8,067 nucleotides of DNA from a virus (Duplodnaviria; Heunggongvirae; Uroviricota; Caudoviricetes): IMG/VR virus record IMGVR_UViG_2703718825_000004; one strand, 5' to 3'. Both the position numbers and the translations under genes were made by a program. Of this stretch, positions 1 through 7,218 are shown one piece after another (the stretch's first letter is position 1; each line of letters begins with the position of its first letter). The notes below the pieces were generated by a model. It saw only the letters and a list, made by a program, of their open reading frames with translations, was not told the origin of the DNA and made no database searches.

Positions 1-32
1 GGTGGCGAGGGATTTCTCCCCCGCCTGGTCTC

Positions 33-188
33 TTACTCCTCAGGTTCGTAAGCTGTGAAGACAGCGACCTCCGTCTGGCCGGTTCGGATTCGTACCTCGC
101 AGAGGTCTTTCCTCGTTACCAGTGCCGTCACTATGACGGTTAAACAGATGACGATCAGGGCGATTAACATCGCCTTTTGCTGCTTCAT
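33..188 (-). CDS. hokD: Hok/Gef-family type I membrane toxin (HokD/RelF-like), 51 aa
   Basis: Minus-strand translation MKQQKAMLIALIVICLTVIVTALVTRKDLCEVRIRTGQTEVAVFTAYEPEE matches, from memory, HokD/RelF and the Hok-family pattern (one TM helix, RKDLCEV...TGQTEVAVF...YE). AAGGAG Shine-Dalgarno lies about 9 nt upstream of the ATG at 188-186. Imperfect GC-rich hairpin in the 3' region (about 3-29). Sequence identity is recalled, not searched. Confidence 0.85.
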   Translation of the reverse strand: MKQQKAMLIALIVICLTVIVTALVTRKDLCEVRIRTGQTEVAVFTAYEPEE

Positions 189-245
189 AACCTGCTTCTC
201 CTTGCCTTTCGGCGCGTAAGAGGCTAACCTACGTTTGTGAAGCAT
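33..245 (-). CDS. Mok-like in-frame upstream reading frame overlapping hok (70 aa)
   Basis: Same frame as hok, starting at ATG 245-243 (MLHKRRLASYAPKGKEKQV then MKQQ...). This resembles the MokC/HokC arrangement in which mok is an N-terminally extended frame of hok. No convincing SD before this ATG; inference. Confidence 0.4.
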   Translation of the reverse strand: MLHKRRLASYAPKGKEKQVMKQQKAMLIALIVICLTVIVTALVTRKDLCEVRIRTGQTEVAVFTAYEPEE

Positions 246-431
246 AGATTGGGCCTCAGATTAATGTTAAGCGTCTTGCAGGACGCGTAATGTTAACTGG
301 GGCTTTTCTCTGTCTGCCTTACGGTGGCATGCCCGAGGCAGACAGCCTCAAGCACCCGCAGCAATTCTACTTAACTCTCGCTTTACAGCAAACCGTTTTG
401 CCCGATATGGGAATTCCCATACGGAATGAAT

Positions 432-6802: not shown

Positions 6803-6855
6803 TTTCTGGTGACGTTTGGCGGTATCAGTTTTACTCCGTGACTGCTCTGCCGCCC
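6803..6855 (+). ncRNA. dicF: DicF small regulatory RNA (ftsZ-targeting sRNA of the Qin-type dicB operon)
   Basis: Sequence TTTCTGGTGACGTTTGGCGGTATCAGTTTTACTCCGTGACTGCTCTGCCGCCC matches the 53-nt DicF sequence as I recall it, followed by a T5 tail (6856-6860). It sits immediately upstream of dicB as in K-12. Confidence 0.85.
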
Positions 6856-7029
6856 TTTTTAAAGTGAATTTTGTGATGCGGTGAATGCGGCTGAGCGCAC
6901 GCGGAACAGTTAAAACCAAAAACAGTGTTATGGGTGGATTCTCTGTATCCGGCGTTAATTGTTAACTGGTTAACGTCACCTGGAGGCACCAGGCACTGCA
7001 TCACAAAATTCATTGTTGAGGACGCGATA

Positions 7030-7218
7030 ATGGAAACGTTATTACCAAACGTTAATACGTCTGAAGGTTGTTTTGAAATTGGTGTCACTATCAGTAACCC
7101 TGTATTTACTGAAGATGCCATTAACAAGAGAAAACACGAACGGGAGTTATTAAATAAAATATGCATTCTTTCAATGCTGGCCCGTTTACGTCCGATACAA
7201 AAAGGATGCTGGCAATGA
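7030..7218 (+). CDS. dicB: DicB cell-division inhibitor (MinC-activating), 62 aa
   Basis: Translation METLLPNVNTSEGCFEIGVTISNPVFTEDAINKRKHERELLNKICILSMLARLRPIQKGCWQ matches DicB as recalled. SD GAGGA 7 nt upstream of ATG 7030. The ORF-track frame 6925..7218 is an upstream extension crossing the DicF terminator. Confidence 0.9.
   Translation: METLLPNVNTSEGCFEIGVTISNPVFTEDAINKRKHERELLNKICILSMLARLRPIQKGCWQ

Follow-up and report, generated by a model that had tools for sequence, protein, structure and literature searches.

A hok/mok/sok-type toxin-antitoxin locus of the hokD/hokW subtype in a lambdoid prophage of Escherichia coli

The hok toxin gene, its mok frame and the hok mRNA

We analyzed an 8,067-nt stretch of viral DNA (hereafter referred to as the window), whose positions 1-1300 match many Shiga-toxin-producing and related E. 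coli chromosomes at 100%, including that of the O26:H11 strain 11368. The locus described here, at the left end of the window, is conserved at 100% in hundreds of genomes. For comparison, we surveyed hok loci using one genome per species, which yielded 53 loci from Escherichia, Shigella, Kluyvera, Citrobacter, Pseudocitrobacter, Photorhabdus, Pantoea, Erwinia and other genera. Counts of conserved elements and of covarying base pairs were taken from an alignment of 43 distinct leaders.

The minus strand encodes a 51-aa Hok toxin at positions 33-188, MKQQKAMLIALIVICLTVIVTALVTRKDLCEVRIRTGQTEVAVFTAYEPEE, which corresponds to the last 51 codons (188 to 33) of a 70-aa open reading frame and is preceded by the Shine-Dalgarno (SD) sequence AGGAGA at 202-197. 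The protein matches Pfam HOK_GEF (PF01848; E = 3e-23, 81.6 bits against a cut-off of 22) and PHROG 251, "MokW-like host killing" (2.8e-33), and is thus a small hydrophobic Hok/Gef protein of the usual length of about 50 aa. The coding sequence is base-for-base that of K-12 hokD, which bears out the description of the toxin in an initial annotation of this DNA as HokD/RelF-like. The same annotation had proposed a Mok-like in-frame extension, and such a frame exists: the 70-aa mok frame (33-245, minus strand) starts at an ATG at 245, lies upstream of and overlaps hok, is in frame with it and ends at the common stop. It has its own SD, GAGG at 254-257 on the minus strand, and its geometry is that of the annotated mokW of phage 933W. 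Across the aligned leaders, the mok ATG is aligned in 40 of 43, the mok SD is kept in 42 of 43 and the hok SD in 39 of 43. A further small minus-strand frame at 432-536 was considered as part of the module and rejected, as it has no Pfam or PHROG match and the homology to 933W ends before it.

Upstream of the leader, on the minus strand, lies the hok promoter that the initial annotation had pointed out, with a -35 hexamer TTGCTG (391-386), a spacer of 16 nt and a -10 hexamer TAGAAT (369-364). The -35 element, read from the sequence, is a weak match to the consensus (3 of 6 positions), which is why this promoter is missed by a simple consensus scan, and homology to 933W begins just upstream of it. 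The -10 element is conserved in related loci, with TAGAAT, TATAAT or TATATT aligned at this position in 34 of 43. Seven nucleotides downstream of the -10, at 357, aligns model position 1 of the Rfam family RF01794 ("sok"). The full-length match runs from 357 to 183 and covers model positions 1-157, with 114.9 bits against a gathering score of 59 and E = 2.7e-26. The match is to the minus strand, the strand of hok, and stops at the hok start codon; RF01794 as built therefore represents the sense strand of the hok leader, with Sok complementary to the middle of the model.

Taking the Rfam model start as a guide, the 5′ end of the hok mRNA probably lies near 357; the transcript would run leftward on the minus strand through 357-1 and off the window. 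In the parent genome, a GC-rich hairpin with a T-run (L002, 8964-8947) forms a terminator that lies 36-62 nt past the left edge of the window, so that the full mRNA would be about 420 nt long. Folded at this length, it has a minimum free energy (MFE) of -174.9 kcal/mol (z = -6.5). In the MFE structure, the tac element at the very 5′ end (GGGUGCUUGAGG, 357-346 on the minus strand) pairs with CCUCAACGCACCC, 51 nt after the hok stop, through 12 base pairs interrupted by one bulge (-21.1 kcal/mol). This partner is the fold-back element fbi, CCTCAACGCACCC, which we read from the parent genome, where it lies 17-29 nt beyond window position 1 and precedes the terminator. The 3′ fold-back region is therefore cut by the window edge, as had been suspected, and it is intact and able to pair with tac in the parent genome, which sets aside the concern that a disrupted fold-back element might leave hok untranslatable.

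Long-range tac-fbi pairing is a shared property of the family. A duplex about 50 nt after the stop is found in 35 of 40 loci tested, with compensatory changes between U/C on one side and A/G on the other (GGGUGC/GCACCC versus GGGCGC/GCGCCC, and GAGG/CCUC versus GAGA/UCUC). In one further locus, L026, a duplex is retained at this place but is weaker and interrupted. The remaining four, which lack it, are visibly decayed copies: tac is mutated in L006, the fbi partner is absent from L016 and L048, and the leader is disrupted in L046.

The existence of such decayed relatives raises the question of whether the present locus is itself a silent remnant that expresses neither toxin nor antitoxin, as proposed for the chromosomal hok genes of K-12. 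According to the introduction of a preprint, chromosomal hok loci tested earlier, namely hokA, hokB and hokC, gave no post-segregational killing and were judged inactive (bioRxiv 10.1101/2025.08.07.668861); an intact sequence is for this reason no proof of activity. Against decay, tac, fbi, ucb, the mok SD and ATG, the hok SD and reading frame and both sok promoter hexamers are intact in this copy and match the family consensus, and its peptide is that of K-12 HokD, which served as the toxic control when overexpressed (bioRxiv 10.1101/2025.08.07.668861). The conservation of the locus at 100% in hundreds of genomes and the functional hokW-sokW system, 92% identical in DNA, also speak against it, and we consider a decayed, silent locus very unlikely.

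Three further leader elements complete the hok mRNA side. Next to tac, a 5′ hairpin (ctgtctgcc/ggcagacag) spans 310-345 on the minus strand; it is supported both by the fold and by covariation, being 85% paired over the 43 loci with 6 of 13 pairs changed on both sides. The initial annotation had recognized this hairpin but extended it to 348, three positions too far, and had correctly placed a second one (gcgtc-ttgcag-gacgc, 271-286). The ucb or anti-SD box AAGCCCC (305-299, minus strand) is identical in 38 of 43 loci, and a dcb-like box, GCCUC, lies at 224-220 on the same strand. In the predicted MFE fold of the full-length 420-nt RNA, tac-fbi pairing is accompanied by pairing of the mok SD (257-254) with ucb. 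In the predicted MFE fold of a 373-nt RNA lacking fbi, ucb is taken over by tac, and the mok SD region is paired to the dcb-like box. In the model for plasmid R1, the closed state combines tac/fbi with SD/ucb and the open state combines tac/ucb with SD/dcb (PMC9841398). The predicted folds thus act as the R1 hok/sok switch model requires.

The sok antitoxin gene

The initial annotation had found no convincing sok promoter or terminator on the plus strand and had left the control of the toxin open. Candidates for both are present and conserved. The putative sok promoter consists of TTGCCT at 202-207 and TAACCT at 225-230 on the plus strand. Its -35 hexamer, which overlaps the complement of the hok SD region, is TTGCCT or TTGACC in 42 of 43 loci; the -10 is mostly TAACCT or TAATCT across the 43 leaders; and the spacer of 17 nt is likewise 17 nt in 42 of 43. 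Both hexamers are identical to those of sokW in 933W, as are tac and fbi, with one difference in the sok spacer.

The ends of the RNA can be placed by homology. The 933W record AF125520 annotates mokW, hokW and a 71-nt "SokW antisense RNA", and since the alignment of the window to 933W (92% identity) is gapless through the leader, the coordinates of the sokW misc_RNA feature transfer to 237-307 on the plus strand. The resulting Sok RNA of about 71 nt would be 93% identical to the validated sokW (5 mismatches in 71 nt). Three of the five differences, at window positions 239, 240 and 246, fall in the 5′ tail, where target recognition begins. For a 74-nt RNA covering 237-310, the predicted fold has a free energy of -30.7 kcal/mol (z = -5.2; none of 200 shuffles as good) and combines a 5′ tail with a long, interrupted hairpin downstream of it. 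The tail (237-250) is single-stranded and contains the complement of the mok start codon, CAT at 243-245 on the plus strand. The hairpin (251-305), together with the U-tract CUUUUCUC at 302-309, forms a putative terminator at 251-309 on the plus strand, supported by the fold and by covariation, and the gcgtc-ttgcag-gacgc hairpin at 271-286 turns out to be its tip. The locus therefore appears to hold a cis-antisense gene that has a promoter and a terminator of its own and whose RNA would be complementary to the mok initiation region.

Covariation bears on the strand from which this hairpin acts. Two base pairs of the Sok hairpin show frequent compensatory exchange (AU in 29 loci and GC in 13; GC in 22 and AU in 16). 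The window-derived structure has 72% of cells paired, compared with 33-41% in slid registers, a figure biased upward because the structures tested come from the window's own folds; the shuffle controls, in turn, overstate significance because the 43 loci are phylogenetically related. Pairing in the Sok hairpin reaches 90.4% when the alignment is read on the plus (Sok) strand and drops to 68.5% on the hok strand; of the cells that pair on one strand only, 177 belong to the Sok strand and 7 to the hok strand. The flanking helices of the hok mRNA have the reverse bias, with the hok sense favored by 79 to 29 cells in the 5′ hairpin and by 70 to 13 in the other helix. This asymmetry is the pattern expected if a plus-strand hairpin RNA is under selection. 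Covariation and strand asymmetry together support a plus-strand Sok RNA, which this copy presumably transcribes. With it, all regulatory elements of the R1 model are present here and conserved in the 43 related loci.

Generic promoter and terminator scans list neither the hok promoter nor the sok promoter nor the Sok terminator, as all three deviate from the simple consensus, and we gave these scans no weight for or against. The case for the three signals rests on their conservation and on homology to sokW, from which we infer the promoter strengths and transcript ends of this copy. One promoter-like site listed by the scan lies inside the leader (270-241, minus strand) and probably arose by chance.

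Experiments on the closest relative, carried by prophage Sp5, describe what such an RNA can do. A 71-nt sokW RNA was detected by northern blot with a probe, YO-592, that corresponds to window positions 266-237 (Takada et al. 2021, PMC8621323). sokW neutralizes HokW, and a promoter mutation abolishes this protection (PMC8621323). The hexamer replaced in that "pro-less" mutant is the one identical to the -10 described above, as primer YO-421, used for the mutagenesis, replaces precisely the bases complementary to TAACCT (PMC8621323). A fragment corresponding to window positions 186-340, which provided sokW in trans, brought back part of the protection (PMC8621323). By analogy with hokW-sokW, which is 92% identical and for which toxicity, neutralization and instability of the antitoxin RNA have been demonstrated, the Hok encoded here would be toxic and its Sok, an unstable RNA, would neutralize it.

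Control of the toxin by a protein antitoxin or by a trans-acting sRNA, in place of a cis-antisense RNA, had been left conceivable when no consensus promoter or terminator was seen by eye. We found no other point in its favor. The window has no RelB- or RelE-like frame, and the conserved Sok promoter and hairpin are in place. A 67-aa plus-strand frame (290-493), considered as a protein antitoxin, has no family match in Pfam, overlaps both the Sok terminator and the hok promoter and is taken to be spurious. We regard control of this kind as extremely improbable.

Relation to relBE-hokD of K-12, plasmid R1 and 933W

In K-12, hokD is the third gene of an operon with relB and relE. The initial annotation had reported no relBE upstream of hok and had taken the locus for an autonomous hok/sok module instead. 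That reading holds, and the promoter, leader and hairpins on which it was built are real. No relB or relE lies immediately upstream of hok for co-transcription: a tblastn search of the whole window with K-12 RelE and RelB returned only noise (E = 8.6 and 0.31), no minus-strand ORF of at least 60 aa covers 246-645, and extending the view to the 19.3 kb annotated in the parent genome likewise reveals no relBE.

Where the initial annotation went astray was in treating the absence of relBE as unusual. In the one-genome-per-species set, relBE lies upstream in only 3 of 53 hok loci, and nearly all others have a recognizable leader. Among 5426 complete E. coli genomes, hok with its leader occurs in 4262 (counted as at least 80% coverage of window positions 140-400, that is, the leader and the start of hok) and the relE-hokD junction in 1173; some strains, such as E2865, carry both.

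In the Qin prophage of K-12, the coding sequence of hokD (relF) is identical and the 3′ UTR, with fbi and terminator, is nearly so. Synteny is also retained, with the gene upstream of DUF968/ydfU and a Q gene and with DicF and dicB beyond the immunity region. Homology to the window stops, however, about 14 nt upstream of the hok ATG; beyond this point lies relE, which has no homology to the window. K-12 thus lacks the hok promoter, tac, ucb, the mok start and the entire sok gene, and has relBE in their place. Because leader and sok have been replaced by relBE, K-12 hokD is a truncated or rearranged derivative, and the window holds the complete form. The leader-bearing form is the common, complete one, and relBE-hokD is rarer and derived.

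The hok/sok (parB) module of plasmid R1, archetype of the family, has the same tac/fbi and ucb/dcb elements, the same coupling of mok and hok and a Sok that is antisense to the mok start, a likeness that we judged through the Rfam model, whose family is built around R1, and published descriptions of R1. The R1 module resides on a plasmid, whereas the present one is chromosomal and prophage-borne. HokW, from the closest relative of this locus, is only 44% identical to R1 Hok (PMC8621323).

That relative, hokW-sokW of 933W and Sp5, shares 92% DNA identity with the window from the -35 of the hok promoter to just after fbi. The two cassettes share their layout, with in-frame mok and hok and a Sok of 71 nt encoded opposite the leader, and both are carried by prophages. 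They differ at a few residues of the Hok C-terminus and in the 3′ terminator after fbi, which 933W does not share.

Taken together, these comparisons make it highly probable that window positions 1-400, with about 60 nt beyond the left edge, constitute a complete type I hok/mok/sok cassette of the hokD/hokW subtype.

Prophage setting and a model for control

The parent region in O26:H11 11368 is a lambdoid prophage of the Qin type, and hok occupies the position that it has in Qin of K-12. On the hok strand, cro is followed by a YdaT-family gene, an O-like gene and the P replication gene, small nin-region genes, hok, a DUF968 gene, rusA and a DUF1133 (Q-type) gene; the opposite strand encodes a LexA-family cI-like repressor, DicF and dicB. 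The cassette thus occupies the nin region, with the replication genes on one side and Q on the other, whereas in 933W it sits at the far end of the prophage, near attR.

We propose the following model, in which the mRNA processing, transcript ends, expression, toxicity and biological role that we infer for this copy are patterned on its relatives. The promoter at 391-364 would give rise to a stable minus-strand hok mRNA of about 420 nt. In the full-length molecule, tac (357-346) would pair with fbi and ucb (305-299) would cover the mok SD (257-254); because both pairings keep it closed, this mRNA would be neither translated nor bound by Sok. Slow trimming from the 3′ end would remove fbi, upon which tac would switch to ucb and the mok SD would be freed. 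Translation of mok from the ATG at 245 could then carry ribosomes into hok at its ATG at 188. From the other strand, TTGCCT-N17-TAACCT would drive synthesis of the unstable Sok RNA of about 71 nt (237-307), whose 5′ tail would pair across the mok start of the processed mRNA, blocking translation of mok and hok and marking the duplex for RNase III. Were Sok synthesis to stop, Hok would be made and the inner membrane damaged; such a stop could come with prophage induction or with loss of the element.

The position of hok invites another view of its expression, namely that the gene is transcribed mainly from the prophage pR operon, with Sok playing a minor part, and serves as a lysis-timing accessory under phage control. 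It is co-oriented with cro, O, P and the nin genes and lies upstream of the Q antiterminator gene, and scanning the minus strand from the nin genes to hok gave no terminator that exceeded chance expectation. In Sp5, moreover, HokW is produced only after RecA-dependent induction (PMC8621323). Against this view, hokW mRNA is already present in Sp5 before induction (PMC8621323). The cassette also has its own conserved promoter; homology to 933W starts at this promoter and ends just after fbi, marking out a self-contained unit, and 933W holds the same cassette in its different context near attR. Transcription from pR would in any case add to control by Sok, not replace it. We consider it improbable that the pR operon is the main source of hok expression, and favor the self-contained type I cassette.

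A narrower role for pR can also be envisaged. As hok is co-oriented with the early-right operon and no upstream terminator above chance was found, read-through upon induction could collide head-on with the sok promoter and turn Sok off, either by interference or by titration with sense RNA; this is a speculative proposal that we think unlikely to be correct. In Sp5, Sok RNA is lost upon prophage induction in a RecA-dependent manner, and hokW-sokW assists lysis and doubles phage release after induction (PMC8621323). If read-through does take place, it would provide a mechanism for this loss of Sok and would make Hok a built-in, induction-coupled lysis-timing device. A single genome can carry up to 10 hok/sok modules, and their Sok 5′ tails vary at a few positions, so that partial cross-protection between prophages is possible.

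The locus itself is already known, given its identity to annotated genomes and its 92% identity to the characterized hokW-sokW, a system annotated since the 933W genome record and studied experimentally in 2021. As a textbook hok/sok cassette, it has little discovery value. Its lessons concern annotation. RefSeq labels the toxin gene of O26:H11 11368 hokD and annotates neither mok nor sok, from which a reader or a pipeline can wrongly infer a toxin without an antitoxin, and the Rfam "sok" match, reported on the hok strand, can mislead strand assignment. Finally, the relBE-hokD arrangement of K-12, often taken as the reference, is unfit as an expectation for hokD-type genes.

Start region, editing motif and Rfam model of the hok mRNA

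Within the hok/mok/sok module, a 10-nt inverted repeat (181-190 and 235-244) with 90% complementarity links the two translation starts. On the mRNA, one arm (UGCUUCACAA) lies just after the mok ATG and the other (UUAUGAAGCA) lies at the hok start region. This repeat could occlude the hok start unless it is opened by ribosomes translating mok. Further along the coding sequence, the hok Tyr47 codon TAC is followed by G (47-50, minus strand), creating a UACG motif that is kept both in this gene and in hokW, its counterpart in the Stx2 phage 933W. TadA A-to-I editing, which changes tyrosine to cysteine, has been described for the hokC, hokD and hokE mRNAs, as in hokB (preprint 10.1101/2025.08.07.668861).

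We note that the Rfam model named "sok antitoxin" (RF01794), which matches the minus strand at 183-357, spans the hok mRNA from its 5′ end to the hok ATG. The model is written in the hok-mRNA sense, and its matches therefore fall on the toxin strand and not on the strand encoding Sok. An automated annotation that relies on RF01794 would assign "sok" to the incorrect strand and overstate its length.

Sequences flanking the module and the dicF-dicB region

Directly upstream of the hok promoter, and on the same (minus) strand, is a 34-aa hydrophobic ORF (432-536; MSDDISLVMEGALAVIAVVGVYCLVVFLMERLGN) corresponding to the RefSeq hypothetical protein WP_001278460.1. This ORF lies outside the cassette common to the window and 933W. 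It has no match in Pfam or PHROG, and its product is possibly a small membrane protein. Between the stop codon of this ORF and the hok −35 element, we found a perfect 14-bp palindrome (407-420; ATGGGAATTCCCAT) that includes an EcoRI site. The palindrome sits just beyond the 933W-homologous region and could either be bound by a protein or be a scar left by recombination at the edge of the cassette.

Towards the other end of the window, a full-length DicF sRNA was identified on the plus strand at 6804-6855 (Rfam RF00039, 76.7 bits vs a gathering score of 48), with dicB annotated downstream at 7030-7218. Together, these features indicate that the prophage has a Qin-like dicF-dicB cell-division-inhibition region, which adjoins the cI/cro immunity region. 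A sub-threshold match to the Rfam family STnc100 (6853-7062, plus strand; E = 5e-5, 35.7 bits where the gathering score is 47) begins right at the end of DicF and extends into the start of dicB. This match may represent a diverged relative or the structured dicF-dicB spacer.

Related hok loci in other genomes

Assemblies of unrelated taxa contain hok modules of the E. coli type, nearly identical (96-100% at the protein level), on very short contigs: a 275-bp contig labelled "Acinetobacter idrijaensis" (L018), a 431-bp contig labelled "Xanthomonas pisi" (L023) and a MAG of "Candidatus Scatousia" (L056). The leaders of L023 and L056 are 89-92% identical to that of the window. These three loci appear to stem from contaminating E. 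coli or phage DNA in the assemblies and not to be genuine occurrences.

Decayed hok loci were also present elsewhere. The 5′ tac element is mutated in L006 (GACTGCATGTGG), its 3′ pairing partner fbi is missing at the usual distance in L016 and L048, and the leader is replaced in L046. These loci are useful negative controls, showing how an inactivated hok copy appears.

Among complete E. coli genomes (for example, NZ_AP018808.1 at positions 1483236 and 2157789), modules of the window subtype reach 10-11 copies in a single genome, and some strains carry both the complete module and the relBE-hokD form. Because the Sok 5′ tails differ by a few bases between copies, cross-regulation among prophage hok/sok copies is conceivable.
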